DNA of 64,000 bases from Candidatus Omnitrophota bacterium. GTDB lineage: Bacteria > Omnitrophota > Omnitrophia > Omnitrophales > JACROU01. The stretch lies in NCBI GenBank assembly GCA_029261035.1, contig JAJDCD010000012.1:6958-70957 (forward strand), given 5' to 3'. Within the stretch, counting starts at the first letter, position 1. Each line of letters begins with the position of its first letter. A program made the translations under genes and the position numbers. Of the stretch, positions 3,312 through 39,195 are shown one piece after another. Below the pieces are notes generated by a model, which was not told the origin of the DNA, made no database searches, and was given only the letters and a program-made list of their open reading frames with translations.

Positions 3312-3977
3312 ATGTTTGAAATAAACTTATTACCGGAAGAATTTAAAAAAATTGATGAAAAACCCAGAGTCGTTTCTTTCCGATTTGCCATGATTGTCAC
3401 TTCGGTATTAGGCATACTACTATGGTCATCCCTTTCTTTTATGGTTGGAACCATTAAAGTGGATCTTAATAACCTTTCTTTGCAAAACCAAAGTTTGCAA
3501 ACGAAATCAGTTGAAGCCGACAAAATTATAAGTGAAATAAACCAAAATTATTTAGAACGAAACAAAGTAATATTTAGTATAAATCGATTTAATCAGTTGT
3601 GGGCTTTTGTTTTTAGCGGAATCAGCAATCAGTTGCCGGAGACAATATGGTTTGAAAAAATCAAATTGCAAATGAAAGGCCCTAATACATGGGAGTTCAT
3701 GCTAAGAGGTATGGCTCAAGCAAGTACGGATGAACCTGCAATTAAAATTGTTGGGAAATACATTAGTTCTATAAAAAAAGTCTTAGAAAGTTCTATTAGA
3801 TTGAGTTATGTGTATGAAGGAAATGATCTGGGTGAGTTAAATAATTTAAGTGAGAAGATTTCTTTAGAAACATCTACAAATCAAAAGAATGTTGAAGATG
3901 TTACTGTAACAGAGTTCAAGAGCTGGTATTTAATGCTTGAGAATGAGGGGAGTCAGGATGAAACTCGGAAAAGGTGA
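3312..3977 (+). CDS. pilN: type IV pilus assembly protein PilN
   Basis: N-terminal INLLPEE motif followed by a single TM helix (FAMIVTSVLGILLWSSLSF). The position after pilM fits. Confidence 0.7.
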   Translation: MFEINLLPEEFKKIDEKPRVVSFRFAMIVTSVLGILLWSSLSFMVGTIKVDLNNLSLQNQSLQTKSVEADKIISEINQNYLERNKVIFSINRFNQLWAFVFSGISNQLPETIWFEKIKLQMKGPNTWEFMLRGMAQASTDEPAIKIVGKYISSIKKVLESSIRLSYVYEGNDLGELNNLSEKISLETSTNQKNVEDVTVTEFKSWYLMLENEGSQDETRKR

Positions 3978-20330: not shown

Positions 20331-23057
20331 CTACCAATCTTTAGCAACTTCTAGGTTCCTTGATTGCTCAGGAGGACGTCTAAGATATAACAAATCTTTC
20401 TCTGCTTCTTGTAAGGCATTTAGTATGCGCATAGCGCTATCTTTAGATATCTTACTTCCTTTTTGCTGATATCCACCCTGACCTATAGACTGCGGCAAAT
20501 TCTGCTCTCCTGGCTCACCTCCCCCACCTCCATTCATACCCTCTTCCAGTTCCTTTCTAAGCTCTTCTGTTGACTGTGGCCCCATAGAAGAACCTGCTCC
20601 TTCTTGCTCATTTTTCTCATCTAAAGTAGGGTCGTCTTCAGGGAATGGAATTGTTTCATCTTCTAAAGAATCTTCTTCTGGAGTTGGTATTTCAGCCTTC
20701 CCTTCTTCATCATCCTTCTCTTGATTAGAACCGTCTTTTTTCTCTTCATCTTCAGCCCCTTCACCCTCAGACTTCTTTTCCTCAGACTCTTCTTCGCCCT
20801 CATTTTTATCTGACTGATTCGACTCTGATTCCTCTCCCTTTTGCTGAGATTTTTCTTGTTCTTTTTGCTGCTGATTCCGTTGGTTGGTACCAGATTGAGA
20901 TTTTTGTTCCGACTGACTCTGTTGCCCATTCGACTGCTGGTCCTGGCTTTGAGATTGATTATTTTCTGAGTCTTCTCCCTGATCTTTCTCTTCTAACTTT
21001 TCTTGCTCTGATTTTTGTTCTTCTTCAGATTCACCTTTTTCTTTATCAGACTCCCCTTTACTTTCTTCTAATTCATTTTTGTCTTTGTCACTTTTCTCTT
21101 TACTGGATTGAGCGCTTTGATTATTGCTTTGTTGAGACTGCTCATTTTCATTTTGTTTCTCTTGCTCAGATTGCTGATTTTTAGATTGGGATTTCTGCTG
21201 CTCATTACCTTGCTCCTGAGAAGACTCAGACTGCTGTTGCTGATTTTCTTGACCTTCCCTGTTCTGCTGCTCTTGATTTTGCTGCTGAGATTGGCTTTGA
21301 GATTGTTGTGACTGTTGATCCTGGTTTTGTTGTTGTTGATTTTCTTGGCTTTGCTGCTGCTGAGACTGACTCTGGCTTTGTTGTGACTGTTGCTGTTGTG
21401 ATTGTTGATCCTGGTTTTGTTGTTGATCTTGCTGCTGACTCTGAGATTGCTGCTGAGATTGGCTTTGGTTCTGCTGGGACTGTTGTTGTTGATCTTGATT
21501 TTGCTGCTGATCCTGTTGCTGGTCTTTGTTTTGTTGGTCCTTTTGGTCTTTTTCTTTCTGTTGTTTTTCGTAATCTTCGTTTTCTTTCTTTTCCTCTGGA
21601 GACCTTCTCTCATCCTGCTCTTTTTCGTAATCTTCTTTTTTCTTTAACAAGAACTCTAAATTGTATTTAGCGTCTTTATCCTTCGGATTCAGGTCCAACA
21701 CTTTTTTATAAGCTGAGATAGCTTTATCAAAATTCCCTAAACGATATTGAGCATTTCCATAATTATACAAGCTTTTACCTATCAATTTTCCTTCTTCAGT
21801 CTTGTCTAAACCCTTTAGAGAAGTTTCAAAAGCGTTATTCGCTTCCTTAAATTGTTTTAACTGATACAAGGAACTCCCCATGTTATATAAAATTTTAGGG
21901 TTATCCTTATCTTTCTTAGCCGCTTCCCTATAAGTTTCCAAGGCTTGTCGGTACCTTTTTTCTTGGAAGAGTTCATTAGCCTTATTATTCAAAGCTGTTT
22001 TTGTTTCAATAAAACCCGTTAACATAGGGTACATAAGAAGTAAGAAAACAAAAGCTTTCATTTTTTTTCTATCCGTTAAAAGAAGTTCTGCTATAAACAG
22101 CAGAAAAGCCACAAAAAGAAAAAGTTGAAAATGATCTTCCTTCTCTGTAATTTCTCTTTCTTTAAAGGTTTTCTTTCCTAATCCTTGGATATGTTTGTAG
22201 ATAATATCTATTTCCTTTTCTCCAGGAGTTGAAGGAAAATATAGCCCCCCTGTTTCTTTCGCTATTTCCTCTAATTTAGAGCCATTTAATTTAGAGATGA
22301 CCACTTGCCCTAAACGATCCTTTTTAAAGCCTGTAATACTGTTTCTACCCCCTTTTAAGGGTATAGGGGCACCTTTTCTAGTCCCTACCCCCACGGAATA
22401 GATTCGAATATTGGATTCTTGCGCTTTTTTAACAATCCCCTCCAAACCTCCACTATGCTCTTCCCCATCCGAAAACACGATCATAGCCTTGTGCTTCCCC
22501 TTAGTATCAGGAAATGCTTTCAAGCCCGTCTTTAAGGCATTAGAAAGAGAAGATCCTGGGTCTGGAATATACCCAACCTTCACCGTATCTAAAAAGAGAT
22601 AAAAGGCTGAGTAATCAATCGTAAGAGGCGTTTGAAGAAAAGAGCTTCCGGCAAAGGCAACTAATGCAATTCTATCTCCTTTAATTCTACGAACAAAATT
22701 TCTGATTTCAAGTCTCGCTTTTTCAATTCGATTTGGTTTTATATCTTCAGCCAGCATGCTCAGTGAAGTATCTAACAAAAAGACAATATCCACTCCTTTC
22801 CTCTGAATTTTTCTTTTCTCCTCTCCCCATTGCGGTTGTGCTAAAGCTAAAATCAGAAAGAGAAAAGCCCCCAAAATTAGAGCGATTTTTATTTGAGCTT
22901 TCTTTTCTGAAGTAAATGGGGATAGTTTAGGAATTAATTTTAGAGAAGCAAATTGAGACAGAATACTTTCCTTTCGCTTCTTTCTCCAAAAAAAGAGTAA
23001 AGCAACTAAAGGAATTCCTAAAATAAAAAAAAGTATTGTTTCATTATAAAATTGCAT
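20331..23057 (-). CDS. BatB-like VWA protein fused to a TPR (BatC-like) module and a long Gln/Ser/Glu-rich low-complexity tail
   Basis: N-terminal TM helices. VWA domain with MIDAS DIVFLLDTSLSM. Two further TM helices (aa ~310-350). TPR repeats (aa ~355-470). Low-complexity region aa ~475-845. Conserved-looking C-terminal ~60 aa. Confidence 0.8.
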   Translation of the reverse strand: MQFYNETILFFILGIPLVALLFFWRKKRKESILSQFASLKLIPKLSPFTSEKKAQIKIALILGAFLFLILALAQPQWGEEKRKIQRKGVDIVFLLDTSLSMLAEDIKPNRIEKARLEIRNFVRRIKGDRIALVAFAGSSFLQTPLTIDYSAFYLFLDTVKVGYIPDPGSSLSNALKTGLKAFPDTKGKHKAMIVFSDGEEHSGGLEGIVKKAQESNIRIYSVGVGTRKGAPIPLKGGRNSITGFKKDRLGQVVISKLNGSKLEEIAKETGGLYFPSTPGEKEIDIIYKHIQGLGKKTFKEREITEKEDHFQLFLFVAFLLFIAELLLTDRKKMKAFVFLLLMYPMLTGFIETKTALNNKANELFQEKRYRQALETYREAAKKDKDNPKILYNMGSSLYQLKQFKEANNAFETSLKGLDKTEEGKLIGKSLYNYGNAQYRLGNFDKAISAYKKVLDLNPKDKDAKYNLEFLLKKKEDYEKEQDERRSPEEKKENEDYEKQQKEKDQKDQQNKDQQQDQQQNQDQQQQSQQNQSQSQQQSQSQQQDQQQNQDQQSQQQQSQQSQSQSQQQQSQENQQQQNQDQQSQQSQSQSQQQNQEQQNREGQENQQQQSESSQEQGNEQQKSQSKNQQSEQEKQNENEQSQQSNNQSAQSSKEKSDKDKNELEESKGESDKEKGESEEEQKSEQEKLEEKDQGEDSENNQSQSQDQQSNGQQSQSEQKSQSGTNQRNQQQKEQEKSQQKGEESESNQSDKNEGEEESEEKKSEGEGAEDEEKKDGSNQEKDDEEGKAEIPTPEEDSLEDETIPFPEDDPTLDEKNEQEGAGSSMGPQSTEELRKELEEGMNGGGGGEPGEQNLPQSIGQGGYQQKGSKISKDSAMRILNALQEAEKDLLYLRRPPEQSRNLEVAKDW
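21300..21480. repeat. about 90-nt (30-codon) imperfect tandem duplication inside the Gln-rich region
   Basis: The 23-nt string TGTTGATCCTGGTTTTGTTGTTG occurs exactly at 21313-21335 and again at 21403-21425, with similar flanks. Confidence 0.7.
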
Positions 23058-23072
23058 TCTTTATCACCTGTT

Positions 23073-24053
23073 TTAAGGAAGCTTTAAAAGAATCGTACTT
23101 CCTAACAATATTTCCAAAATCAAAAGCAGAATCGCTGGCCACAATAAATAAGGAAAGAGCTCGTTATAATTTGCATACTCCTTAACCTTAACTTCTGTTT
23201 TTTCTAATTCATCAATCTTTTTATAGATCTGTTCTAAACTACGCTCATCTCTTGCTCTAAAAAAAACTCCTCCTGTCATATCTGCTATTTGTTTTAACAT
23301 CTTTTCATCAATATCTACTTTTGCTTGAACATAACGTCTTCCGAAAAGAGGATCGTCCACAGGAAAAGGAACAAGACCTCCCCTGCCAATTCCAATAGTA
23401 TATATTTTAATGCCAAAACCTTTGGCTAGCTCAGCCGCCGTAACGGGATCAATGTTTCCAGAATTATTTTCACCGTCGGTAATTAATATGACAACCTTAC
23501 TTTTAGCATCGCTTTCCCTCAATCTATTGATTGCATTAGCTATAGAAAGGCCCACAGCTGTGCCATCTTTGATCATCCCAATCTTAACTTCGTCCATTAA
23601 AGAAACTAAAACATCATAATCTAATGTTAAAGGACATTGAGTGTAGCTTTGCCTTGCAAAAACAACTAAACCAATACGGTCATTCTTCCTTCCTTTTACA
23701 AATTTCTTAGCTTCTTCCTTTGCTACATAAAGACGGTTTTCAGGGGCAAAATCTTCAGCCTGCATTGAACCCGAAACATCCAGAGCTATAACAATATCAA
23801 TACCTTTTGTACTTAATTCTTTTTCACTTTCAATGGCCTGAGGACGAGATAAAGCGAGCACAATTAAAATCAACGTAATTATCCTCAACATCGAAAGAGC
23901 TCTTATAGGGTTCTGAGAACCGGCAATTTTAATCTTCTTGATCTCATTCAGAGTCGGAAACCTCAAACTACTACTTTTCTTTCGTATCGAAATAAAGTAC
24001 AAGAAAGGCAAAACGATTAAAAATATTAAAAATAAAGGCGATTCAAAATGCAT
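23073..24053 (-). CDS. BatA-like VWA-domain membrane protein
   Basis: Two N-terminal TM helices. MIDAS DIVIALDVSGSM. ILITDGENNSG. C-terminal TM helix. Confidence 0.85.
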   Translation of the reverse strand: MHFESPLFLIFLIVLPFLYFISIRKKSSSLRFPTLNEIKKIKIAGSQNPIRALSMLRIITLILIVLALSRPQAIESEKELSTKGIDIVIALDVSGSMQAEDFAPENRLYVAKEEAKKFVKGRKNDRIGLVVFARQSYTQCPLTLDYDVLVSLMDEVKIGMIKDGTAVGLSIANAINRLRESDAKSKVVILITDGENNSGNIDPVTAAELAKGFGIKIYTIGIGRGGLVPFPVDDPLFGRRYVQAKVDIDEKMLKQIADMTGGVFFRARDERSLEQIYKKIDELEKTEVKVKEYANYNELFPYLLWPAILLLILEILLGSTILLKLP

Positions 24054-25036
24054 TATCCAATCTCCTTTTCATTAATAACTTTCATTTTTTCTTCCCCATC
24101 TTTTTCTAAAGGCTCAGCTTCTCTCTCATATGTGTTTTCAATGATTTTCCAGGCCATCTTAAAGTCTTTTTGTATTTCTTCTGTTTGAGGGGTGTGTTTT
24201 GCGTATTTAACCATTTCCAAGGAATTAAAATATTCCATAATTAAACGGACATCTTCCTCAGATAAATTTAATCTCTTTATAGATTTAAATATTTCTAATT
24301 TCGTTTCCTCGATAGCATTAAATTTATATCTTTTTGAGAGGTACAATTTAATCACTTCGGATAAACCATAGTAGTAAGCCTTATGTTCTCCTCTAACCAA
24401 CATCCCACTATCTTTTATTCGATTGAGTGACTGAAAGGCTGCTTCATGAATCTTTAAAGGGGGTGTCTTAAAACGATCTAGAAGGTGAGGGTTTTTCCTT
24501 AAGAAAAAGAAAAGAAATATAAGGAAGAGAAAAAAAACAGCTCCGAAAATTATAAAAAAGAACTTCCAAAATTGAGAAGGTATTTCTGTAACCCCTTTAA
24601 TCCCTCGTATATCCTTCTTAACGGCACCCTTTTTATCAATGGAATGTACCGTGATATATAGTTTATTTGTTTTAATCTCTTTTTCTTTTCCGTCAATATC
24701 CTTAAAGCGAAGAGTTATTGGATCGATTACGTATTCACCCAACGTATAACTTGTTATTTCATAAGTTTTACCTTCAATGACCTGAGCTCCTTCTTTTCGA
24801 GGGGTAATATCAAGGGAAGACTTTATTTCAAAATTTTTTAACTTTTTTTGATCTAAAGAACTTAAAATCTCAATTTGCGGGTTTCTTTTAATTTCAATTC
24901 GATATTCTACTTTATCTCCTACGGTAATAAATGCTTTATTCACCGAAGCTTTAACAGAAATATCACCCACATCTTGAGAGTAAATTAATGGAGTCATTAG
25001 GGAAAACAATATTAAAAATAAAATCGACCGTCTCAA
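24053..25036 (-). CDS. BatD-like membrane protein (signal peptide, beta-rich ectodomain, TM helix, helical tail)
   Basis: Architecture only: signal peptide MRRSILFLILFSLMTPLIYSQ, a TM helix FFFIIFGAVFFLFLIFLFFFL, then a basic stretch. It lies inside the Bat-type operon. Confidence 0.5.
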   Translation of the reverse strand: MRRSILFLILFSLMTPLIYSQDVGDISVKASVNKAFITVGDKVEYRIEIKRNPQIEILSSLDQKKLKNFEIKSSLDITPRKEGAQVIEGKTYEITSYTLGEYVIDPITLRFKDIDGKEKEIKTNKLYITVHSIDKKGAVKKDIRGIKGVTEIPSQFWKFFFIIFGAVFFLFLIFLFFFLRKNPHLLDRFKTPPLKIHEAAFQSLNRIKDSGMLVRGEHKAYYYGLSEVIKLYLSKRYKFNAIEETKLEIFKSIKRLNLSEEDVRLIMEYFNSLEMVKYAKHTPQTEEIQKDFKMAWKIIENTYEREAEPLEKDGEEKMKVINEKEIG

Positions 25037-25074
25037 ATTATATCCTCTTCCTCATATAAGCTAACTCTAACAAT

Positions 25075-25959
25075 CTACTGCCTTCTTTTGCGAGCGTCTC
25101 TTTCTTTGAAAAATTTCATCAATGGATCTACATAAGATTCAGTAATATCTATTTCTATCTTATCCAATCCCGTCTTCTTAAATAGCTCGTCTATTTGGTC
25201 TAGATTTGCTTGAGTTTTCATGCAAAATTGTTTTTGAAATTTTTTACTTTGTGTATTTACAATTACCTCATCCCCTGTCTCCAAATCCTCTAATGCGAGA
25301 TAACCTATCTTAGGAATATCTCTTTCTCTTGGATCAAAAAGATGGACCCCAATAATGTCATGCTCTTTCCCTAAAATTTTTAGAGGCTTTTCGTAGTTTG
25401 AGTCTATGAAATCTGAAATTAAAAAGATAACTGCTTTTCGGGTTAGCACCTTATGCATGTATTCCAACACCATAGAAAGATCGGTTTTGTTATACTTAGG
25501 TTCATATGAGAGAATTTCTCGGACTACACGCAAAGCATGTTTTCGACCCTTCTTAATAGGAATGTATTTCTCAACTTGATCTGTAAAAAATATAAGTCCC
25601 ACTTTGTCGTTATTCTTCACAGCTGAAAAAGCGAGAAGCGCTGTGATCTCTGCTGCTATTTCAGATTTAAGCTTTTCACCCGAACCAAAAAAACAAGAGT
25701 ATGAAGCGTCAACAACAAAAAAAACAGTAAGTTCCCGTTCTTCAACAAACTGTTTTATATAAGCAGTTTCACTTCGCGCTGTTACATTCCAATCAATAGA
25801 ACGGATATCATCGCCAGGGACATATTCTCTAACGTCTGAGAATTCAATCCCCTGCCCCTTAAAAACAGACTCATATTCTCCTCCAAACAAATCATTAACT
25901 AAACGATTTGTTTTTATTTCAATGAGTTTTACTTTGCTTAATAGTTCTTTTGGTAACAA
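25075..25959 (-). CDS. DUF58-family protein (MoxR-associated)
   Basis: Motif DDIRSIDWNVTARS and a VWA-like core FFVVDASYS. It lies downstream of the MoxR ATPase, as in Bat operons. Confidence 0.85.
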   Translation of the reverse strand: MLPKELLSKVKLIEIKTNRLVNDLFGGEYESVFKGQGIEFSDVREYVPGDDIRSIDWNVTARSETAYIKQFVEERELTVFFVVDASYSCFFGSGEKLKSEIAAEITALLAFSAVKNNDKVGLIFFTDQVEKYIPIKKGRKHALRVVREILSYEPKYNKTDLSMVLEYMHKVLTRKAVIFLISDFIDSNYEKPLKILGKEHDIIGVHLFDPRERDIPKIGYLALEDLETGDEVIVNTQSKKFQKQFCMKTQANLDQIDELFKKTGLDKIEIDITESYVDPLMKFFKERDARKRRQ

Positions 25960-26074
25960 TTTAAGCTCCTTAAGGGACTGTCACTCATCTCCATTCAAAA
26001 TTTTAGCAATTAAGTTCTTAAAGTAAATTAATTTATATTTTGCATCTTCACTTTTTTGGCCCTGCCCTTTACCT

Positions 26075-26211
26075 AGGGGACACGCACTTTTGCCACAATT
26101 GCTGTCGCAATGGTTACAAAAGTCCATGTCCCCAACTTCGAGCTGTGCTAATTTGGGGACATGGATTTTTGATACTGTTGCTTGCAACTGTGTCAAAAAT
26201 GCGTGTCCCCT
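26075..26211. repeat. 137-nt nested inverted repeat (long imperfect hairpin) in the MoxR-DUF58 gap
   Basis: The outer arms AGGGGACACGCA (26075-26086) and TGCGTGTCCCCT (26200-26211) are perfect. The inner arms TCCATGTCCCCAA (26123-26135) and TTGGGGACATGGA (26153-26165) are perfect. The segments between them are largely complementary. Confidence 0.8.
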
Positions 26212-26231
26212 TCCTCAATATTAACCTTCTA

Positions 26232-27233
26232 CTACGGAACTTCTATTTGGTCGAATATTTTCTTAACAATATCTTCGGAAGTCATGTCTTCAGCTTCCGC
26301 CTCATACGTAATTAGGATACGGTGTCTTAGCACGTCCAATCCAATTTGCTTCACGTCTTCAGGTGTAACATAAGCTCTTCCTTTTAGAAAAGCATGAGCC
26401 TTTGAAGCTTTCGTTAACATAATACTTGCCCGAGGAGACCCTCCAACTGAGATTAAATTCTTTAATTCTTCCAATTTATATAATTCTGGATTACGCGTAG
26501 CAAAAACAATATCCAGAATATAATCTTTTATTTTTTCATCGATATAAATATCATTAACCAAACCTCTTAATCGAAGAATGTCTTTAGGATTAATCACTGC
26601 ATTTACATCAATTTCATCGCTTTTAGTAACTTTTTCAAGAATTAATTTTTCTTCTCTTTTATTGGGATAAGTAACGTTAAGTTTAAGCATAAATCGATCT
26701 ACTTGAGCTTCAGGTAGCGGATAGGTCCCCTCTTGCTCAATTGGATTTTGAGTTGCCAAAACTAAAAAAGGTTCTTCAAGCTTATATGTATTTTCACCAA
26801 TAGTAACTTGTCTTTCTTGCATCGCTTCCAGCAAAGCACTTTGCACTTTTGATGGAGCACGGTTAATTTCGTCAGCCAGAATGATATTGGAAAAAATAGG
26901 TCCCTTTTTAGTCGTAAAATTACCGTCTTTTGGGTTATAGACAAGAGTACCAATTAAATCTGCCGGCAAAAGATCTGGCGTAAACTGAATTCTTTGAAAT
27001 TTAGTGTCGATGGCTTGAGCCAAGGTATGAACAGATTTTGTTTTAGCAAGGCCCGGAAGACCTTCAATCAACACATGACCATTTGCCAAGATGCTGATAA
27101 GAAGTCTTTCTATCAGATACTCCTGCCCCACAATCACTTTATGAATCTCAGTGATGAGAGCTTCCACCAATTTGTGTTCATTTTTTACTTTTTCTGTAAT
27201 TTCTTTTATTACTGCTTCCATGACTACCTCCAT
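26232..27233 (-). CDS. MoxR-family AAA+ ATPase
   Basis: Walker A GLPGLAKT, Walker B and sensor region ILADEINRAPSKVQSALLEAMQERQVT, and ATQNPIEQEGTYPLPEAQVDRF. Confidence 0.92.
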   Translation of the reverse strand: MEVVMEAVIKEITEKVKNEHKLVEALITEIHKVIVGQEYLIERLLISILANGHVLIEGLPGLAKTKSVHTLAQAIDTKFQRIQFTPDLLPADLIGTLVYNPKDGNFTTKKGPIFSNIILADEINRAPSKVQSALLEAMQERQVTIGENTYKLEEPFLVLATQNPIEQEGTYPLPEAQVDRFMLKLNVTYPNKREEKLILEKVTKSDEIDVNAVINPKDILRLRGLVNDIYIDEKIKDYILDIVFATRNPELYKLEELKNLISVGGSPRASIMLTKASKAHAFLKGRAYVTPEDVKQIGLDVLRHRILITYEAEAEDMTSEDIVKKIFDQIEVP

Positions 27234-27264
27234 ATTCTATAGTTATTACGAATGAAAATTCATT

Positions 27265-28164
27265 TTAGTTTCTTGGTTCAAACTCACCTTTGGGTTCGTT
27301 AACCAGTTTTGATTCAAAAAATCGTTCTGACAATCTTTTAACTTCAGTGCTTTGTGCATATGTTAATTTAGTTTGAGAGTACTTACAGGATTCTAATTTT
27401 AATATTATTTCTAATAAAATATTTTTATCTTCGTCTGTCAAAGATTCACAGGACTGTATGTTGTTTTCATCCAAAACAATTAACTGATAGGTGTCACTCA
27501 GATATTTACTTATTTTTTTGGACAACAATTCCATAAACTCTGAAAATTGTCCATCTTCAAGCAAGCTACCCAATCTATTAATTTCATTTAAAACCTCTTG
27601 CTCTATACTAGGTTTTGAATCTTCAATTATCTTCTTCTTTTTTTTCTGTTCTTTAATAAAAAAAACGAGCATCAAAAGAAAAACCACAATTCCAGCAGAG
27701 GTTATCCATTTCCAAGGAATAACTAAGGGTGGTTTTCTAATAGATACATTTTGACCTGGGACTTCAATTTGACTCATAGAGCTCTTCCCCGTCTCTATGT
27801 ATTGAATAGGAAAGGAAGGAATAGTCACTTTGCCAGCTCTTGCTGCAATAAGTGTGAAATTAAAAATTCTTCTTTGAATTAACCAACCATTTTCAGTTTG
27901 AGCAGATTCAGACGATACCCCTGTGTTTTCAATTGTAAAACCTTCTATTTCTAATACGGGTGGAATAAATTTGACCTGATCTTCATTTCCTAACCATTCG
28001 ATGGAAACCTCTAAAATAGCCTTAGAACCAATAGTTGGCTCTTCGTCTTGAAACGTTATACTCTTATTAATGGTTAAGGATATAGGAGAATCTTCTTGAG
28101 CATATAAAGCATTGGCGGGTAATACAAAAAGGACAAGAACTGTAAAAATATAAATCCATTTCAT
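27265..28164 (-). CDS. BatD-like membrane protein (first gene of the Bat-type operon)
   Basis: Signal peptide MKWIYIFTVLVLFVLPANALYA, a beta-rich ectodomain, a TM helix AGIVVFLLMLVFFI followed by KEQKKKKK, and a helical tail. The architecture matches 24053-25036. Confidence 0.5.
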   Translation of the reverse strand: MKWIYIFTVLVLFVLPANALYAQEDSPISLTINKSITFQDEEPTIGSKAILEVSIEWLGNEDQVKFIPPVLEIEGFTIENTGVSSESAQTENGWLIQRRIFNFTLIAARAGKVTIPSFPIQYIETGKSSMSQIEVPGQNVSIRKPPLVIPWKWITSAGIVVFLLMLVFFIKEQKKKKKIIEDSKPSIEQEVLNEINRLGSLLEDGQFSEFMELLSKKISKYLSDTYQLIVLDENNIQSCESLTDEDKNILLEIILKLESCKYSQTKLTYAQSTEVKRLSERFFESKLVNEPKGEFEPRN

Positions 28165-28482: not shown

Positions 28483-31400
28483 TTAGGCAGCTGCTTGAAT
28501 GGCTTTCCAAGCATTGATGTCAGCAAGTAATGTATCCCAAAGAGCGGCTCCACCTGCTAATTCAATACCGGTATATATCTTGGTATCAAATTGCTTACGA
28601 CTGAAGTCCAGAAGTTTCTTAGCAAGCAAGGTAGCTGTTAAGTTGTGTTGTGTTGTATCGCCAGAAGAGACTTTAGCTAATAACAGTCCTCTTTGAGCCG
28701 TTACATCTCCAACAACCTCTTCAACACCCACAAGACCTGTCGGAACTTTCTGCAATTTAATTGTTTCATTTAGACTACGATCGAGATTCTCTGGAGCAGA
28801 AACAATCACTAAGTTATCTGGATAGAGACCATATTCAGCAATAGCCAGATCTCGAACCTCCGTTTTTAAGGCTGCTATTCGTTCAGCATTACCAGAAAAC
28901 CACAAGGTCAACTTTAATGCTTTATCCATACCTGCAAGCAAGACAAGTTCTTGTAAATCAGTAGCCACTGTCTTGTCTGTCACTTCTCTATGCACAAACA
29001 AGGCTCGTGATGTACTTGTATTTGCATCTGGAAGTACATTAAAGATTCGCCCCAATTCCTGAGTTGCCGTTGGTGTTAAGCGAATAACATCCGCACTCAA
29101 GATCGTATTATCTGCGATTTGAGCCAACTCAGCTGGAAGAGCAATATCGAAAGAAGTTAATACTTGTTCTTGAAGTTCTCTTCCGTACTCTTCTAAGACC
29201 AATGGTAGAGTTAAATCTCTTGGTCCTGTAAAAATTGTTTTAAACTCAGGAGTAACAAAGCTTGCAACCTGAGCTCCTAAACTTTTTGCTGCTGTTTGAG
29301 CTTCAACAATTACTCTTGTTTTATCGAGTACCTTAGAAGCATTCTCGATTATAGCTTCAGTTGCTATTGGTGTAACCACTTCAAGAGGTGAACTATTTTG
29401 TCTTATAGATTCCCCCACAAGAAAACCAACACGTTCACCTATGGATTCAACAATACTTGGCATATCTAATCCAAGTATCGTCGTAAATACACCAGAAACA
29501 CCACCCCCATTAATAACGTAGTCTACAGCCCACAGAATACCTGTGTCGAATAATTGCGCAGATAATTGACGTGCTTTATTAGCAACAAATTGTTCATTTG
29601 CAGCACCTGCAACAATTTTAATTCCAGCTTCACTCAATCTTGCAATAGTATCCTGATCCAAAATATATTTAATTGCTGTTGGACTAAATACAGATGCCGG
29701 AACATCATAAATCTGATCTGATTTTGCAAGCAAAGCAACACTTCCATTCTCAAGACTACCAAAATTAAATGTTGAAACATCTGGAATTGTAGGAACGTTG
29801 GAATAAGTTTCTTTGACAATAGCATGTTGACTATCAAGTTCACTCATAACGACAATAGCTCCCTCTTCTATCAAAGCTTTAACTAAAGGAGTTCCAACAC
29901 CACCCTGTCCGCCTTGAACAGCTATTATTTTACCTTCAAGAGTTACATCTTCACCAAATACTTTTTGAATAGAAGCCTTAATCCCATTAAAAACACCTCT
30001 TGCTGTCCAAGGAGATGCATTATCACCCCCAAGAGCAAGATCTTTGTGCCCTACAACGTGACTTGGGGAAGTTTCCCCTATCGTCAACAATAAGGGTAAT
30101 GGTGTATTCATGTCTTGTCCCACAAATGTCACTGGTATATTCTCTAAAACTCTACCAAGACTGAGATATGCATCTCTTAATTTTCCTCTTTCAACCTGAG
30201 AAAGGTTCTCAATTTTTTTATTTGGATCAAGACCATCTACCTGAATCATTGTCTTTGACCCGCCTAAAGGTAATAAATCGAGACCAATCATGGCATTCTT
30301 ACTTGTCATAGCTCGAGATAAAGTCAAAGCTGAAATCATTTGAGCTTCTCTAGAATCCCATTTTAATCGGCGAACACCTCCAATAGCACCAGACATCAAC
30401 CATTGTTCTGTTCCATATTTCTTATAAGGAAGTAAATGATGTAAACCAATAATAGCTGTATAACCAACACTCTCATTTCTAGCAATAACAAGTCCCACAT
30501 GACCTTCCCAAACATCACTTACATGAGAAGGTAAACTAGAAGGATCTGTTATTCTGGTTACCTTTGTTCCATCATTTAATGTCAGACCTTCTTCAGGAAT
30601 CAAATTCTCAACCCATTGACGTCCTAGTATTTGCATTTCCTTGAATGCTCCATCCCCCAAAGAATTTGCTATAGCAGATTCTAATTTAGATTGTTCATCA
30701 ATAATAAACGAAGGAACATTTTTAAGCTTTCCTAGAAAATCTCTTCTACCAGAAACTTCTTGTTCCCAATAACCAGAATCAACTGTAGTTGTAATGCTTA
30801 AAAGATCTGATGGATCAATATCCACCCCATCAAAATGAACACTCCCCTTTTTAGGGACAAGACCAACAGAAGTTTCAGTATAGTTATCAGCTCCACTAGC
30901 TCTCTCTAACGCCCAAAGAATAACTCGAAAGTTTTCCATAAACCCAGGCCAAATATAACTACCATCTTCGTTTTGTCTAAACCAATTAACATGAAAGAAA
31001 GCTGGAGCTTGCTCTCCAAGAGAACCAATCACTCTTAATTTATTTTCCATATCTGCTGCTTCTGTTTGAGAAAAGAAAGGACGATTTGCAAAAGGATCTC
31101 TTTTCATAACACCTTCTTCTCCAGCTGCTGCTGCTGTACCCATAACACCCATAACAGCACCATCATAGATACCTGATTCTATCGTAGGAAGCTGACGTAC
31201 TAAAAGTTCTCCTTCAGGAATACGACCACCCCAGAAGATTGCGCTAATACGAACACCCTTAGGATCTCTCCAGTGTTCTGACATGATTTCATCTTGAACA
31301 CGTTCTGCAGATGCTGCATAGCGTGCATTTGGATGAGCCCATTCTCTTGGCTCTAGCTTTTTGGACACTTTATTCTTTTGAAGTCGTTCTCCAGAAGACC

Positions 31401-34400
31401 AGTCAGCAATCTTTTCTCCGGTCCAATCTTCCCAACCTTCTAGATCTGGAGTTCCAACTTTAAGGGTTTCAGACCCTTCTATATATGTTTCTTCTCCAAA
31501 TGCCCATGCTTTGTAATGAGCTTTACTTTTAAATCCTGGAGGGAATTTGGTTTTATCTGTCCACCATACTTCATTTGTAATTGTGTTAATTGCAACATTG
31601 GTAAATATTGTCCCCGTGTTTGGACCAATGGCTACCATTGCTTTTGGTGTTTGCTCCGCATTCGTACCTTTTGCAACACCAAAATAACCATTCTCAGCAT
31701 TGGTTGCATAAAGCCCTTCACCTTCACGAGCACGTGCGAAAATAATGTCATCACTGACAACACGAACTTCGTACTTACCTTTAAGAGCATCTGGAACTTC
31801 GATCATAGCAAAATTCGTTTTCCCAGAAGCACTTGGCGCTGCATATGCTACATAATCAAGTTTTCCTGTTTCAAGATTCTTGATTTCAACCACAGCCATA
31901 TGCTCTGCTAACCAACCTTCTTTAATTGCACTCCAAGTTGCATAACGAAGTGCATGAAACTTTTTGTTTAATAGAGCATTCCCACCATAATTAGAGCCGT
32001 AAGACATAATCAACATTTCATCAGGAAAAATACCGTAATTCCTTAAATCGACACCATCTTCAGCTTCTTCAATAAACTCTTTTCTAGCATCGCCTTCAAG
32101 ACCCAACTCATTCGCTTCTTGTGTTGCTTTCTCATTCGCTTCTGCAATAAGAGAGTATATTTTATCTATATCACCAGGTTCATGAACACCACGAACAAAT
32201 TTTTCTTCATCACCTAGTTCTGCCAGAGCTACATTACCTACCTTAGCAAGTCTGAACATATTTAAAGCCACATATCGACTTGATGTTACCTGAACACCCA
32301 CCTGAGAAAGGTCAGAGCCAGCAGTTCCCATTAGATATGGAAGAACATACATTGTTTTGCCAGCCATAGAACCTTTTAACAGACCTTCCATAACTTCTTT
32401 CTTTTCTGCTGTTGGACTCCAGTTGTTATAGTGCCCTGCATCCTCTGGGTTTTCTGTTGCGACAAACGTCTTTTTAACAGAACGCGCCGTATCTTTTTTA
32501 TGAGAACGTGTGTAATAGTTACCATCTGCGAGTTTTGTTAATTCTCCTGCGGCAACAGCTTGCTCAAGTAAAGCAGCGTCATCTGATTCGTCTACAATCT
32601 GAATATCCGCAGCCCCTGTAAACTCAACCATTTCACGAATCCAGCTTTGCAACGCAACATTAGATAAAGTTGAAATCTTATCTTCAATTGCTGCACCTAA
32701 ACTAGAAGCTTCTGTTGTTGTTTGAGTCCAATCGTATACGCTCAAAGGAAAAGTATCATAAACAAAGTCATGAGCCTCCAAAGCTTTCTGAGCTAAAGTC
32801 AATCGACTTATATTTTGAATTGTTGCTTTTTCTGATACTTTCGCTTTGGCATTACTAAGTTTTTTAGTAACATTTTCACGAGAATCAAAAATTGCATCCA
32901 ACAAAGCATCTCTCTCAGAAGCATTCGATTCAATTACAGCTAGCAGCACACGCGAACCATAAGTAATCCATTCATCGTGAGTCAATTTTCTTTTTAATAT
33001 TTCCATAATGACAGGAGATTTGCTTTTATCAAAAGCCCCACCTGGATTATCATTAAAGTATTCAGTTACCGTCAAATCTCTTTCTTGTAACATTTCAAGA
33101 ATAAGTTCTTTAGTAACTTTTTCGCCATTTTTAACTTCTCTACCATCATGAAGAATTTGTCCACCTTCATCCAACTCGATACCATGAATTTCTAACAACT
33201 TAACCCAATGCCAGAAAATTTCATAAGTAGCAAAGTCGTTCATTAAACGTTTACCTGTAAATACGTGTTTACCCGCATCATTGGTAAGACGTTCTTTTTC
33301 CGTTTTATAATCATCAACAGCGGCTGCATTATTTCCATTCAACTGTTGGAACCCATACTCTGAAGCCATAAAAATTGCATAACGAATTCCATCTAGTGTT
33401 ACTTTACCAGTTGGAGTTGTGAATATTTTCGCATAAGCTTCTTCAGAGAATAACTCATCTAAATCTTTTTGAGTAACGATATAAGGAGTAATTCCTCCTG
33501 CATCAGAAACAAGTCCTAAGTTAATGAATTTTTGTCTTTCTTCTACAGATAAACCATCTACTAAAGCTTGCAAGTCTTCTCTAGTTGCTTGTAACGGTTT
33601 AGCGCCTGCCTCTACATATTTCGTGGATACAGTAGCAACCCAACTTTGACGATAGGCATCAAACTCAACTCCATCTATAACAAGAAGACCTGTTAATCGT
33701 TCACGGAGTTTATCTAAAAACATTGCTTGAACAGCACCGTCATTAGTAGCTTTCTTAGCCGCAGCAATCTCTTCCGTGTCTGTTGCTTTAATTGGAGTTT
33801 CCATTACAGCAGACATTCCACCGATCGGCATACCATTCTCCAGAGCACCCGTTTCACGATTTCCTGTTACTAGTACTGTAATTAAAGCATTCCTACGCGT
33901 GTATTCCGTCATAGAGGCTTCTGTCATACCAACGCTATTAGGATCAGGAAATACTTTTGAAGGGTCATCTTTAACCATCTCAAAACGCCCATTAATATAA
34001 TCCCAACGACCTACATTAGGTCCAATTAAGTTTTCTCTTAAAATCCAAAGAATTACTTCTTGCTGAGCAGCATAAGTCCCTCTTTCATTCAACATTTCTA
34101 TTTTTATAGAACCCCTTTCAAGACCTAGAGTTTCTTCAAATCGCTTAAGAATCTTAGAAATAATCAAAGCTTCTTCAGGAGATTCAATTTTAGGGACATA
34201 AAAGTAAACATTACTCTCATTTTCTTTTTGAGCATCATAGTTATTCAATAAATGGATTGTAAATGCTGCAATCGTCGCAGGAATATTTCTACCATCTAAA
34301 GTAATTTGTCTGTTTTTTAGATGAAGCCCAGGAACACGATGAAAAATGGTTGGCCATTGATCACGATCCACTTTGATACTATATTCTTTAGGTTCACCTT

Positions 34401-37400
34401 CTTTATTTTTCTTTGTAGGATGTTTGAACGCACGTCCTATCCAGGTACCCGATATCACTTCCTTAATATAAGTCCATGCTTGATAGAGTTTTTGTTGATA
34501 GTCATTACCCGCGTCCTCCCAGTCAAACATCCAAGACACAGCGCCTTTTAACCCTGCGTTAATAGCTCCCATCAACATACCCATATCATCGGCTGGCCCC
34601 GTTCCTTGCAGACCGGCTTTTAGAACTTCTGCTGGGACTGGCACTGTTGAGTTCATAACCCAACGATACTGAGAGTCTTTATTTATTAAACCTTCACGAA
34701 TTTGTTCAACCGTTAAAGTGTTTCCATCCGCGTCGGTCAATTCTTTTGAAGGGTCCGCAAAACCATAACCTTCACCCGAATCTCGTCGAGCTTTTCTAGC
34801 GTGTAGTTGCTTTCCAATTTCTAAACCAAATTCACGCGTCAACGATTCAATCGTTCCTTCTACATTTACCGTTCTGCCATTTACTTCTTTATCACCGAAA
34901 AGACCTGAAAAATCTTCAGCCAAATCTTCGCGAACTACAAGCCCTTCTGTTGTGGTATTTACATCAACATCAGATTTAGCAGAAAGATTAAATTGATTAG
35001 ATGTATCAACATCATTACCTTTTTCTCTTGAAGAGGCTGTTCCATTTGCTATTCTGTTAATAGATGCTAATTGAGCACCTCTCACTTCAGCACCTGCAGA
35101 ATTTTGATGTCTATTGGTGAAAGGAGATCCTATTTTCTGACCCACCTGCTGAACCATAGACACAAATGCATAAGCACCCACTTTAACTAATTCTCTCATT
35201 ACTCGATAAACGTTTAAATGAGCAACATGATCTTGAAAAATGGTTACGAATTGGAATGCAAAACCTTGCTTACCCATATCCGTACTAAAAGTTCTTAAAG
35301 CATCAACCATCGCCTGAACATCTTCAGGGTTGTCACCCCATGTATCCGGTTGACCCCAATCAAAATCTTTTGATTGCATTGCTTTTTTAATATTAGCTCT
35401 TTGCTCTAAGCTCAAAGCAGCATGCCAGTTATCAGGGTTATTCCAGTTAAAAGATGGAGATAAATTCACTGCCTTAAGTGGTTTAAAACCTAACTCTGGA
35501 TCATTGTCTACAATATCAGCAAACGCTTTTGCATTTTTTAAATCGGGTTCTTTTTGTTCCATCCACAAAATATCTGCTGCACGAGCTGCCATTCTCAAAC
35601 GGATCCCTGCATTTGTAACACCCAACGAGTTATCAATTTGAAAAAAACCTTCACTTGTTTGAGCTAACGTGTGATCCCAATAAATTTCAATATTAAAACT
35701 ATTTATTGCTAACTCTCTTAAATCCTGAAAATCCAAAGTAATCTCTAAAGGATTAGTAGCTTCGTTCCATGCCTCGACTTCACCGCTACGGCCAGCTTCC
35801 ACCAAAGCTCTTTCAACAGCTTGAGGATAAGTCATAACATCTGCTTCTTGAGCCCAAACATTAGTCAACCTAGAAGATGCCGCAACCTCCTCTTCCCAGC
35901 CGGAGACTTCCGCATCTAAGACTTCTTGAATTGTCCACTCTTTACCAGAAGCATCAACAACAACGTTATTTAAACGCACTCTAAAGTTCGGATCTTCTAG
36001 CTCAATAGCAAGTCTATTCGACCAAAGTTCATCCACATAAACAGGGTTTCCACCATACTTTGGAGTCAAACTTTCATTATGCTCTAAAAGCCTCTCTTTT
36101 TCTTCTCCTCTAATATTCCAAACCTCTCTAATAGAAGCCGCAATTTTGGGAAAATTAGCTTCGATTTCCGAAAGCCTAACTTCAGGGTCAACACCTCTGT
36201 TATATTCTTTTTTATGAGATAAACGAATCACATCTTTTAAAGAAGGTATTCCTTCAACTGTAGCACCTTTAATAAAGTAATGATCTTCAGCTGAATTATC
36301 ATCTTCAAGTAACTTTGCTCCTTCAGCATCACTGCGTGCAATAATTACCAAAGTTGAGCTTCGACGAATGGCTTCATAACGAATATCCCATAGACGCTTC
36401 ATAAACTCACCTAAAGAAGTCAACACTTTACCAGCCATATGACCACATTTTTTTTGTCCATGTGCTTGGTCTTCAATATGAATCGATGCTGATTTTGCAG
36501 CAATAAACAAAGAAGCTAATTGAGTCGGAGATTTATGAGCAGTATCTCCATCAGCGTAAATAGGAATTAATGCATTTAATAAAACATCATTCAAATTTTC
36601 AAGAACTCCAGCCACTGCTTTCTCTCTATTTGCCTTTAAGTTGTCACTAGAAAAGCCTACATAATTTTCTCGATTACTAATTAATTCAGAAATAAAGCCA
36701 TCCCCTAATTCTGTAGCAAAGTTTTCAAAATCTTCTCTAACTTCTATTGTAAATATATACTGTCTTGCTCTAACAGAATCGACAAACGAGCGAATCAATG
36801 CTGGCTTCATTTGCTCTAAAGATGCTTTGTTAGGAGCCCTTCTTAATATTTGGAATAAATTGGGAAAGAACTTTTTAGTTAGATCTCTAGACAAAGTTCT
36901 GAATTGATATTGTAAGTTTTTGTCCAAGTTAACTAAACCCGTGTAAATTTCTTTAACTTCATTTGGAACACTATCCAATTGGTACTGAGCTAAATCTGGC
37001 TCCCCCATATGATGCGATGTTTGCCAACCACTTAAATACAAAGCTTCTGCCCCTGCCTCAACAGCTGCTTTAGCTGTTACAGAATCCATCACACCACCGG
37101 TCGCTGCAAAAGTACCTTGCTCCGCATGCTTCATAACAAGATAATACAAAGAATCTGCTAATGCATTAGCTGTTTCTGGCACATCTAAAACGCTCCCTGC
37201 CAATCTGTGAAACTCTTCAGCAGTCCATTTCTTATCCTCTCTCATAAATTTAGCAATTCGACTAAATCGATCTTGAGCTAAGAATTTTTTAAAATGTGCT
37301 ACTGTGGGTTCAATTCTTTTAGCCTCTGGCAAAGCACCCAAACTATTGGCAGATACATTAACCACTTCATTAAAAACTGGAAATTCCGCCAACAGATCCT

Positions 37401-39195
37401 GCCCCTCAACAGAAAGTTGAATTCCAACTCTGTTATTCCAGGAAGAAAATTGTTTTCCCCAAGGACTTTCGTTAAGCGTAGTCTGAAGCCCTAAAATATC
37501 CCCAGCTTCTATAACTCCGCTACCAACCAAAGCTCTTCTAGCAGAAATGATGAATTCAGGAGCAACACCACCAAAGTAATCAACACCTAAAGCAACCAAT
37601 GCTTCTACAGAAGTTCCTCCAAAGAAAGGTGTTTCAATTGTTGAGTCCTTTAAACCATGGCTACTTGTCTTAAGGAATGAATGAACGTAAGTTTCTTGCC
37701 CTTCAACAGAATCAATTTGAGGAGCAATTAAAGAATAGTTCGATTTGTCTTCATAATAATTCTTAAAAGATTCAGAGTGAAACCCCCCTGTAATAATGGC
37801 TACATTCTTAGCTCTTCTAGATTCAATTAAAGAAGTAGCTTTATCAAACATACCTGAATCACGCTGAATAGCACCTTCGTAAAATTGCACCGATTTCCCG
37901 AATAGAGCTTTCACTTCTTCTAAATTCTCAATTTGTGTTTTCTTGACACGAGACAATGTATTGATTTCATGAATAATTCGACTAGGGTCTAAAGTGTTTC
38001 CTTTAGACTTCAATGCCTTATAGTCTTTTGGTGTTAACTGTAGCTCAAATAACCGGCTCAATAGTTCAAAGTTTAAAATCAGTTCCAACACCCTCTTCTG
38101 TTCTTTAGACTCTGTTAATTTATCTAAGATCTGAGCATTTAACTTCTCAGATTCATTAAACAACCTATCTCCAACCAACTCATTTTTCAAAAGAAAGTTT
38201 CCAACAAAAAATGAAACATTAGGATATACATCAAAATTAAAATTTGCTGGCAATTTCCTAACCACAGATTCCATCAACAGCGCAAGAGCACCCTCAGCAT
38301 CAGAATCAACAGAGTTAAAAAATGCTTTCAACTGTTTGTGCTCTTTAGCAGAAACAGTTTTGCGTGCAAGTTTTAAAAAAGCATTTTTTTCTTTGTGAAA
38401 CTGTTCTAAATTAAATTGATCTTGAAACTTTTGGAGTTTAAAAACTCTAAAAAGCATTGGCCAATCCAATTGCTGACCCGGTTGATCAAAATCAATATTT
38501 AAGATTTGATTCGCTTGTTTTTTTAAATTTTCTAATCTCTGAATAAATGTGATTTTCTTCTGGTCAAAGTCTTTTTTGTTTTTTAAACTAAGTCGAATAT
38601 CTGCATTCAACAAAGAAGACTTGAGGCCTTCTACCTTAGCTTTTATATTGGATAAAAACAAACTCGTCTTCTCTCTTTGAGATAATACAGCTACAAAGTC
38701 TTTTGAGTTACTCATATAAGATGCTTCATCTTCTATACCATAAGCTTTAACTTTAGGATTATTCATTAAGAATAATTCTGCTCCCTTAAGATAAGCTTTG
38801 CGAGTTAAATCATCTGCAATTTGTGCGTTGATTTTTTTATCACGAACAAACTGAAGCAGTTCAGGTTCTAACTCCGAAACGGAGCCTTCTAAAAGAAGTA
38901 AGTCTATTTTTTTGTTTTGATTTAAATAATTAAGAATGGATTCTATATTTTTTTGGGCTTGATAATTACCATGAGCTGTTTGAATATGAAATACATTTGT
39001 TTCATGTATTTTGGGTGTTTGATGCTGAATAACACCAAGCTCACGAGGTAATGTAAAATTTGAATTGTTAAGTGATACGGATGAAACTGTATTTAATTGC
39101 GTTAAACCTTGCGAATATCCAGTCCCTGAGAAAATAAAAGTTAATGCAACGAACAAGTTTATTGCCTTTAATCTAGCGAAGTAATTAAGAAACAT
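28483..39195 (-). CDS. giant multi-enzyme fusion protein: leader + TraB/GumN-like domain + isocitrate lyase + malate synthase + GTP-PEP carboxykinase + ELFV-type dehydrogenase + unknown C-terminal domain
   Basis: Uninterrupted 3,570-codon ORF in an AT-rich genome. AAGGAG lies 9 nt upstream of the ATG (39193-39195). Hallmark motifs of four enzyme families occur in series (see the domain entries). Confidence 0.9.
   Translation of the reverse strand: [3570 protein letters not shown]
28486..29274 (-). other. domain (aa ~3308-3570): C-terminal region of unknown function
   Basis: About 260 aa of non-low-complexity sequence after the dehydrogenase module. I recognised no motif. Confidence 0.5.
29311..30618 (-). 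other. domain (aa ~2860-3295): Glu/Leu/Phe/Val-dehydrogenase-like NAD(P) oxidoreductase
   Basis: [21 protein letters not shown] (Lys2981), [16 protein letters not shown], Rossmann motif [12 protein letters not shown] (aa 3090-3101), VAGAANEQ and [10 protein letters not shown]. The classical ELFV signature is only partly matched. Confidence 0.7.
30691..32667 (-). other. domain (aa ~2177-2835): GTP-dependent phosphoenolpyruvate carboxykinase
   Basis: [47 protein letters not shown], P-loop APSASGKTN (Lys2459), [20 protein letters not shown], and [25 protein letters not shown] (aa 2734-2758). Confidence 0.9.
32971..34878 (-). other. domain (aa ~1440-2075): malate synthase (A-type-like)
   Basis: FDWEDAG (aa 1557-1563), [32 protein letters not shown] (aa 1725-1733), and [13 protein letters not shown], where Asp1987 sits at the position of the catalytic base. 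Confidence 0.85.
35011..37278 (-). other. domain (aa ~640-1395): isocitrate lyase, long form with insertions
   Basis: YLSGWQ (aa 720-725), IYADGDTAH, the ICL signature KKCGHMAGK (aa 915-923, nt 36427-36453), [38 protein letters not shown] and [10 protein letters not shown] (aa 1362-1371). Confidence 0.9.
37711..39018 (-). other. domain (aa ~60-495): TraB/GumN/ChaN (Tiki-superfamily)-like, tentative
   Basis: [37 protein letters not shown] (TAH aa 73-75, Glu103) resembles the GTxH...E motif of this superfamily. [33 protein letters not shown]...YSLIAP (GGFH aa 470-473) resembles its C-terminal R-[ND]-x2-[MW]...VGxxH motif. This rests on pattern recall only. Confidence 0.35.

Follow-up and report, generated by a model that had tools for sequence, protein, structure and literature searches.

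Processed polyproteins as such are already known, and the two kinds that would be the nearest functional analogues of the locus described here are the MARTX toxins of Vibrio and the polyproteins of viruses. In MARTX toxins, a protease domain in the same chain releases the modules, cutting short linker sites after Leu (PMC6254334, PMC6315884). Our locus lies in a stretch of 64,000 nucleotides from Candidatus Omnitrophota bacterium (assembly GCA_029261035.1, contig JAJDCD010000012.1, positions 6,958 to 70,957 of the forward strand), which is referred to below as the window. It is a single gene for a giant protein, in which a five-residue motif, A-x-S-L-G, recurs at the junctions between an N-terminal domain (the head), a series of metabolic enzymes (the cargo) and a C-terminal domain (the tail). 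We call this motif, and its counterparts in related proteins, a separator.

The likeness to MARTX toxins concerns the overall plan of a giant bacterial protein in which the two terminal regions are conserved and the enzyme modules between them form a variable, swappable set. In addition, the MARTX effector RRSP has the fold of the head. The window protein is nevertheless not a MARTX toxin, because a Pfam scan revealed neither RTX repeats nor a C80 cysteine protease domain. It carries a Sec-type signal, whereas MARTX toxins follow type I secretion. Moreover, the separators of the Omnitrophota family, where cleavage is a prediction, obey a much stricter consensus (A-x-SLG or RxExR), and the cargo is made of enzymes and regulators of central metabolism, such as isocitrate lyase (ICL), malate synthase (MS), phosphoenolpyruvate (PEP) carboxykinase (PEPCK), the isocitrate dehydrogenase (IDH) kinase/phosphatase AceK, triosephosphate isomerase (TIM) and CsrA, instead of cytotoxins. 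The viral polyproteins (picornavirus, flavivirus, alphavirus) share with the family the presence of many proteins per open reading frame (ORF), a short, lineage-specific boundary consensus, small spacer peptides and an N-terminal candidate protease. In contrast to them, the window gene resides in a cellular chromosome, where genes for RecA, AlaRS, SMC and Trp enzymes flank the ORF, and the fold of its candidate protease is TIKI-like, not chymotrypsin- or papain-like.

Giant proteins are also known from the phylum itself. The Archaeovorins of Omnitrophota resemble the window protein in their multi-enzyme content, their signal peptides and a SecA-like cargo, which occurs in one relative of our protein (L034, see below). 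The papers on them deal with proteins of 10-147 thousand amino acids (kAA) and invoke C39/S8 peptidase domains (10.1101/2023.11.21.568195; 10.64898/2026.06.07.730766). Possible cleavage of the giant proteins was speculated upon by West-Roberts 2023 (bioRxiv 10.1101/2023.11.21.568195), who stated the cleavage points as unknown, and the stems “cleav”, “motif”, “linker” and “polyprotein” are absent from the 2026 long-protein catalogue (10.64898/2026.06.07.730766). The grammar of head, separator and tail is not described in these papers, and a literature search for the motif strings and for Omnitrophota polyproteins returned no relevant description of separators; this grammar is newly recognised here. 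A last precedent is the bifunctional ICL-MS of nematodes and Euglena, one chain with the two enzymes in the same order as in the window, where no separator stands between them. The window fusion differs in being part of a larger chain, and in its closest relative, P0004, the sequence AAAHSLGT lies between the two enzymes.

A conserved motif at the module junctions

Mapping with Pfam and PDB sequences places ICL at about amino acids (aa) 640-1400 of the window protein, MS at 1440-2160, GTP-dependent PEPCK at 2170-2843 and a Leu/Glu-dehydrogenase-like module at 2897-3303. For PEPCK, query residue 2177 corresponds to residue 17 of the PDB chain and residue 2836 to residue 598 of 605. Pfam finds in the whole protein only ICL, PEP_mutase, MS, PEPCK, ELFV dehydrogenase and a sub-threshold DUF6986, with no family matched in either the N-terminal 615 or the C-terminal 262 aa. 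Against this layout, the 3570-aa ORF has exactly four matches to A.SLG[AD] (aa 616, 2163, 2843 and 3303), and all of them abut module termini, at junctions that make up about 8% of the protein. An earlier note on this DNA had pointed out these four copies at module boundaries, correctly down to the nucleotide coordinates. It had also remarked that the linker between ICL and MS (aa ~1395-1440, window 35000-35130, minus strand) lacks the motif, which holds for the translated ORF, and that the tripeptide SLG appears at least four times inside domains (TSLGEF, NSLGVT, GSLGEQ, LSLGRV). The same four came up in our count, as TSLGE 927, NSLGV 1190, GSLGE 2725 and LSLGR 3012, all within enzyme cores, giving eight SLG in total. 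Elsewhere in the window, 42 further ORFs (15,414 aa) contain one A.SLG and seven SLG.

The number of copies is a poor guide in itself. Only 0.02 copies of the fixed pattern A.SLG[AD] are expected, and none of 20,000 shuffles gave three or more. This test is post hoc, however: some pattern with four fixed positions in five reaches at least four copies in 22.8% of shuffles, so that p is ~0.23 once the choice of pattern is corrected for, and the raw count alone is not significant. The caution about chance expressed in the earlier note was thus justified as far as the count goes. Within the window, the motif is suggestive, with nothing significant about it apart from its 4/4 junction placement, and the case rests on that position together with conservation in homologues.

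P0004, the closest full-length relative (3052 aa, 42% identity), has the order head-ICL-MS-PEPCK-spacer-tail and carries SLG at all four window junctions (AASSLGT, AAAASLGV, SANSLGS and GLSLGP). In a local-pair alignment, three motif-flanked junctions can be compared, and on one side or both of each the flanks share only 0-3 of 23 residues; for the fourth, only a global alignment works, because the dehydrogenase module is deleted in P0004. As for the internal tripeptides, those at 927 and 2725 are lost and the one at 1190, which belongs to a core block of ICL, is kept, so that two out of three have disappeared, and they are conserved no better than their well-conserved surroundings. The alignment of homologues that had been proposed as a check therefore turned out in favour of the junctions, whose SLGs are kept in P0004 while the internal ones are not preferentially so.

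The same comparison reveals how the modules move. The dehydrogenase is wholly absent in P0004, where a spacer of ~110 aa between two separators takes its place, and it thus represents a whole-cassette indel with separators at its bounds. The ICL/MS junction, which has no separator in the window and AAAHSLGT in P0004, shows a degenerate GGSSLE in the partial orthologue L001, a pattern indicating that separator occupancy is evolutionarily labile. By analogy with nematodes, the window organism would retain a fused ICL-MS. The sample of orthologues with this exact cargo set is two, and a metagenome scan with the tail recovered only the P0004 protein. The partial orthologue P0001 keeps the first junction as KAASLGI, and its locus has the same upstream synteny as the window (TrpD-TrpC-histidine kinase-sigma54 regulator-DnaK). 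In the corresponding contig (L001 13560-13700; Omnitrophota metagenome-assembled genome (MAG) JACROU010000063), the orthologous gene shifts frame near the ICL/MS boundary, and malate synthase runs to the contig end. This change is either an assembly frameshift or a pseudogene, and it makes the database entry P0001 a truncated product.

At the nucleotide level, the codons of the motif vary between the window copies (AGT/TCT, TTG/TTA, GGT/GGG/GGA). This synonymous variation shows that the peptide, and not the DNA, is under selection.

A family of head-cargo-tail proteins with genome-specific separators

The window protein is one member of a large family. A search of species-representative genomes with the head (aa 1-640) yielded 47 loci, nearly all of them in Omnitrophota MAGs, often several per genome, and most being ORFs that run beyond 3900 aa. 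While word-index homology searches with the head, in a database largely lacking such proteins, matched P0001 and P0002 only, an exhaustive profile search (HMMER) retrieved 7267 cluster representatives (1610 at E <=1e-30) of up to 7823 aa. In all of them the head is N-terminal, and the family is almost exclusively from Omnitrophota. The general architecture consists of a signal peptide, a head of TIKI/ChaN/RRSP fold, one to dozens of cargo modules, and a tail ending in [AS]A-COOH.

Most members do not use A-x-S-L-G. The majority separator is R-[SAT]-E-[AVLMI]-R, which occurs 772 times in 150 representatives compared with 10.3 +/- 3.7 in shuffles, a ~75-fold enrichment. The first copy comes just past the head, at a median of aa 622 (cf. 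aa 616 in the window), and further copies follow at a median spacing of 247 aa; the first 500 aa, which hold the head, contain only two of the 772. The minority version A-x-S-L-G is found in the window protein, L032, L034, P0001 and P0004. The earlier note described the motif in one giant protein; it is not peculiar to that protein, but represents the minority version of a family-wide separator. A-x-SLG is also portable, as it separates unrelated cargos in L034 and L032: in the former (Ca. Omnitrophus fodinae), the six copies all lie outside the Pfam hits for M20 peptidase, GNAT, SecA-like and ACT domains.

In both versions, the separators follow the limits of the cargo. TIM of L003 (Pfam 1181-1441) is bracketed by RSEAR at 1169-1173 and 1446-1450, and CsrA of L004 begins directly after RAEVR. 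Overall, 22-23% of cargo homology blocks have a start or end no more than 10 aa away from a separator (~6% for random placement), and separators are spanned 92 times, compared with 263 at random. Some members carry separators 5-7 aa from their C-terminus. Double separators with conserved 12-17-aa spacers recur within single proteins, again in both versions (Table 1), and these spacers may be excised peptides. As in the window, the codons at the motif vary synonymously between the copies of L007 and of L034.

The version of the separator is uniform within a genome and independent of head relatedness. All 17 copies in the three paralogues of JAUYMS are RSELR, both paralogues of JAHFHI have RSEVR, and both of JACROU have A-x-SLG, even though the JACROU head L002 is 47% identical to R-type heads and 34% to its genome-mate L032. 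Such uniformity among heads that are not each other's closest relatives is the pattern expected from one shared reader per cell. A covariation of head clade with motif type, as first read from a neighbour-joining tree, was rejected, because pairwise identities show that the version follows the genome. Met after the separator was likewise discarded as a mark of fused ORF starts, since it is not enriched over the 772 sites.

The head is an alpha/beta domain in which helices lie on either side of a parallel beta-sheet core, and it has the fold of the TIKI/EreA/ChaN/TraB superfamily. Residues H75 (in QTAH), E103, E140, E155, R445 and H473 (in GGFH) are invariant, and five of them (H75, E103, E140, E155 and H473) are so both in 36 and in 126 sequences. 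The 28-residue spacing between H75 and E103 equals that of RRSP H3902-E3930, a correspondence by sequence pattern only, and the motifs QTAH and GGFH are reminiscent of the GTxH and GxxH of the TIKI/EreA/ChaN/TraB/PrgY superfamily, which includes the proven endopeptidases TIKI and RRSP (PMC6254334). The head differs from those proteins in its length of ~480 aa, which includes a large helical insertion, in its fusion to polyproteins and in Pfam scores that stay below threshold.

At both ends of the chain there are further common traits. The N-termini of the family resemble cleavable Sec signal peptides with AxA-like ends, as judged by inspection, such as SQG/L in the window and AQG/L in P0001 and P0004 (the slash marking the presumed cut). 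A Kyte-Doolittle scan of the window protein found no segment >=1.6 downstream of the N-terminus. The tail domain was detected with an iterated hidden Markov model (HMM) at the exact C-terminus of 20 members, including P0004, P0020 and P0098, and 86 of the 150 representatives end in [AS]A-COOH, with 10 more ending in MA. This terminus looks like a C-terminal recognition signal, for instance for a PDZ-type tail-specific protease, for a ClpX-like reader of “LAA” ends, or for secretion.

Immediately upstream of the P0004 gene lies a second head protein (L049 23-3520; 1166 aa), with a signal-like N-terminus and a shortened head (E 5e-66). It carries a single cargo, AceK, between FAASLGG and EAQSLGL, followed by a 24-aa tail ending in KSA. 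With P0004, it would make up a glyoxylate-shunt set that uses one and the same separator code.

Two side observations concern the wider family. In at least 12 Omnitrophota genomes, a single orthologous locus of the family sits in a conserved housekeeping synteny (FabF-like, LpxA-like and ribosomal protein S1-like genes), as seen in the upstream flanks of L003, L004, L007, L009, L014, L020, L024, L026-L028, L030 and L043, from which it follows that these genes are vertically inherited chromosomal residents and not mobile islands. The SecA-like cargo of Ca. Omnitrophus fodinae (L034 aa 1288-1869) is a DEAD/P-loop/preprotein-binding module, which is reminiscent of the SecA-like domains of Archaeovorins and points to an overlap between the two sets of giant proteins.

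Probable processing sites and alternative explanations

We regard A-x-S-L-G as very probably a selected, functional separator between modules. What it does is a more delicate matter, and we give a probability of roughly 0.6 to its being, as the sequences suggest, an endoproteolytic processing site of a bacterial polyprotein. Several normally stand-alone proteins share one ORF (ICL, MS, PEPCK and the dehydrogenase in the window; TIM, CsrA and AceK in relatives), and a short consensus marks their boundaries, as in a polyprotein. The position of separators at native cargo termini, the tandem sites with 12-17-aa spacers and the sites close to the C-terminus all argue for cleavage, and so do the cassette behaviour of the modules, the genome-wide versions and the presence of a protease-family fold in every member. 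The cut would probably occur just after the motif, with Gly at P1 in the window version and Arg in the majority form; both forms would share a hydrophobic P2 and a small P4. From the window protein, this would release a head of ~66 kDa, a fused ICL-MS of ~170 kDa, PEPCK (~76 kDa), the dehydrogenase (~50 kDa) and a tail of ~29 kDa. The earlier note had proposed such cleavage sites, conceivably served by the N-terminal domain or a host protease, with a linker or docking element as the other option, and this interpretation is partly supported. Two readers of the motif come into question: the head, if the polyproteins of a cell form a common pool for it, or a dedicated protease, of which each cell would have one. 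The first of these options, the head as the protease that reads the separators, is a tentative proposal on which we would not rely.

Several observations weigh against processing, or against the head as its agent. Apart from the 22.8% of shuffles mentioned above, Met is not enriched at position +1 (2.2% vs 1.8%), so the modules are not simply concatenated ORFs. The TIKI superfamily also includes non-proteases, such as the EreA esterases and the haem-binding ChaN. The Pfam hits of the heads all stay below threshold (Cofac_haem_bdg in 9 of 36, best E 0.0018; DUF5694 in 8 of 36; Erythro_esteras in 2 of 36), the window head itself has no Pfam hit from the TIKI/EreA/ChaN/TraB clan, and a profile search of the PDB with the head gave no hits. 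No columns were found that switch specificity between A-x-SLG and RxExR heads, in a comparison with only six A-x-SLG heads. Beside the polyprotein loci there is only housekeeping synteny, with no conserved protease gene found. Finally, there is a paradox of topology, in that the Sec-type signal stands before cargo whose substrates (acetyl-CoA, GTP) or partners (IDH for AceK, RNA for CsrA) are cytoplasmic.

The main alternative, though an unlikely one, is that the motif is not cut at all and serves in flexible linkers as a short linear site for docking or recognition. Its binding partner would be the head, the tail, a chaperone or an export factor, and the enzymes would remain tethered in one uncut chain. 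Conservation, portability and genome-specific versions would suit any single reader and not just a protease, the motif-free fusion of ICL and MS in the window indicates that tethered enzymes are tolerated, and the literature on Omnitrophota handles long proteins as intact membrane-associated assemblies (10.64898/2026.06.07.730766). A docking site, on the other hand, need not coincide exactly with native cargo termini, and tandem sites with short spacers, together with separators 5-7 aa from the C-terminus, look like processing sites. CsrA is normally an interleaved homodimer, and TIM and ICL are normally oligomers, assemblies that are hard to square with subunits locked for good into chains longer than 1500 aa. 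If cleavage does take place, a general housekeeping enzyme such as signal peptidase I would be an improbable agent. The Ser at -3, Gly at -1 and Ala at -5 resemble its sites, and a Sec signal is present. However, the junction linkers have no hydrophobic h-region (Kyte-Doolittle, none >=1.6) of the kind that signal peptidase I sites call for, the majority RSExR places an Arg at -1, which is incompatible with this enzyme, and genome-specific versions favour a dedicated, co-evolving reader.

Two other explanations hold very little probability for us. One is that the recurrence comes from chance or from the composition of linkers rich in Ala, Ser, Gly and Leu, as could be thought from the 23% of shuffles in which some 4-of-5 pattern gets four copies, and from the SLGs inside domains. 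It is already contradicted by conservation, by R-type enrichment and by the AceK protein: the 4/4 copies at junctions form an SLG island in the otherwise unconserved linkers of a 42%-identity homologue, the same motif occurs among unrelated cargos and in the neighbouring AceK protein, and its family analogue is enriched ~75-fold. The other is a signal in the nucleic acid, used for cassette recombination, for RNA processing or for 2A-like recoding. The modules do behave as cassettes, but the codons vary synonymously in the window, L007 and L034, so that there is no conserved DNA or RNA word. No 2A-like mechanism is known from bacteria.

Gene layout, neighbourhood and implications

The layout of the window gene is collected in Table 1, together with the tandem separators of two relatives.

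Table 1. Features of the window polyprotein gene (nucleotide positions of the window) and tandem separators of relatives (residue positions)
Feature	Position	Strand	Basis or remarks
Whole polyprotein gene	28483..39195	minus	3570 aa + stop; identical to public library representative P0003
Sec-type signal-peptide-like N-terminus, aa 1-30	39106..39195	minus	Positive n-region, h-region ~14 aa, SQG/L; by sequence inspection
Head domain, aa 31-513	37657..39105	minus	TIKI/EreA/ChaN/TraB/RRSP-superfamily fold; invariant H75, E103, E140, E155, R445, H473
Head-to-separator-1 linker, aa 514-615, probably flexible	37351..37656	minus	pLDDT <50 in both models; weakly conserved
Separator 1 (head/ICL), A616-N-S-L-G-A621	37333..37350	minus	Pattern match; counterparts P0001 KAASLGI, P0004 AASSLGT
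Cargo 1, aa 622-2162, ICL-MS fusion without internal separator	32710..37332	minus	Pfam and PDB
Separator 2 (MS/PEPCK), A2163-S-S-L-G-A2168	32692..32709	minus	Pattern match; P0004 counterpart AAAASLGV
Cargo 2, aa 2169-2842, GTP-dependent PEPCK	30670..32691	minus	PDB mapping; native termini coincide with separators
Separator 3 (PEPCK/dehydrogenase), A2843-N-S-L-G-D2848	30652..30669	minus	Pattern match; P0004 counterpart SANSLGS
Cargo 3, aa 2849-3302, Glu/Leu/Phe/Val-dehydrogenase-like module	29290..30651	minus	Pfam and PDB
Separator 4 (dehydrogenase/tail), A3303-K-S-L-G-A3308	29272..29289	minus	Pattern match; P0004 counterpart GLSLGP
C-terminal tail domain, aa 3309-3570, ending IQAAA-COOH	28486..29271	minus	Family-wide, iterated HMM; no Pfam family
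Tandem separator, L007	aa 1796-1817, 1934-1955, 3782-3803		RSEAR-SSLxTExTTGAV-RAExR
Tandem separator, L034	aa 1021-1043, 3696-3718		ASLGQLEQGADGASxRQALAGSLG

Directly downstream of the gene lies an operon of the Bat aerotolerance type (BatD-like/MoxR AAA+/DUF58/BatA-VWA/VWA-TPR; window 20331-28164, minus strand), which also lies directly downstream of P0004 (L049 13065-18972). The genes upstream differ, with DnaK in the window and the AceK-head protein in the P0004 genome. The shared downstream operon could reflect inherited synteny or a functional tie to the MoxR chaperone system. Its BatA/VWA-TPR product (window 20331-23057, minus strand) contains a Q/S/E/N-rich low-complexity region of ~350 aa, at about aa 480-830, which accounts for a strong AT-skew anomaly (-0.375) at 20-22 kb of the window.

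Taken in full, processing at separators would mean that Omnitrophota make proteins of central metabolism and regulation (ICL, malate synthase, PEPCK, AceK, TIM and CsrA, besides hundreds of unknown modules) in the form of Sec-targeted polyproteins, which would be cut at a genome-specific five-residue code by the TIKI-fold head or by a dedicated protease. A cellular lineage would thereby follow a virus-like strategy on a large scale. We regard this complete scheme as doubtful. In its boldest form, the signal peptide and the tail would serve for the export of modules, and AceK, ICL, MS and PEPCK would act as an effector cocktail that diverts the tricarboxylic acid (TCA) flux of a host towards PEP for the benefit of host-dependent nanobacteria.

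If the separators are cleavage sites, this family would raise the question of why a cellular organism makes housekeeping enzymes in the manner of a virus and behind a secretion signal. Giant proteins of Omnitrophota would then also, for the first time, have an explicit rule for parsing, by which thousands of ORFs of 2-8 kAA, and possibly far longer ones, could be split computationally into mature proteins. The phylum would harbour a bacterial polyprotein system that is new and has a head, a tail and a site code of its own.

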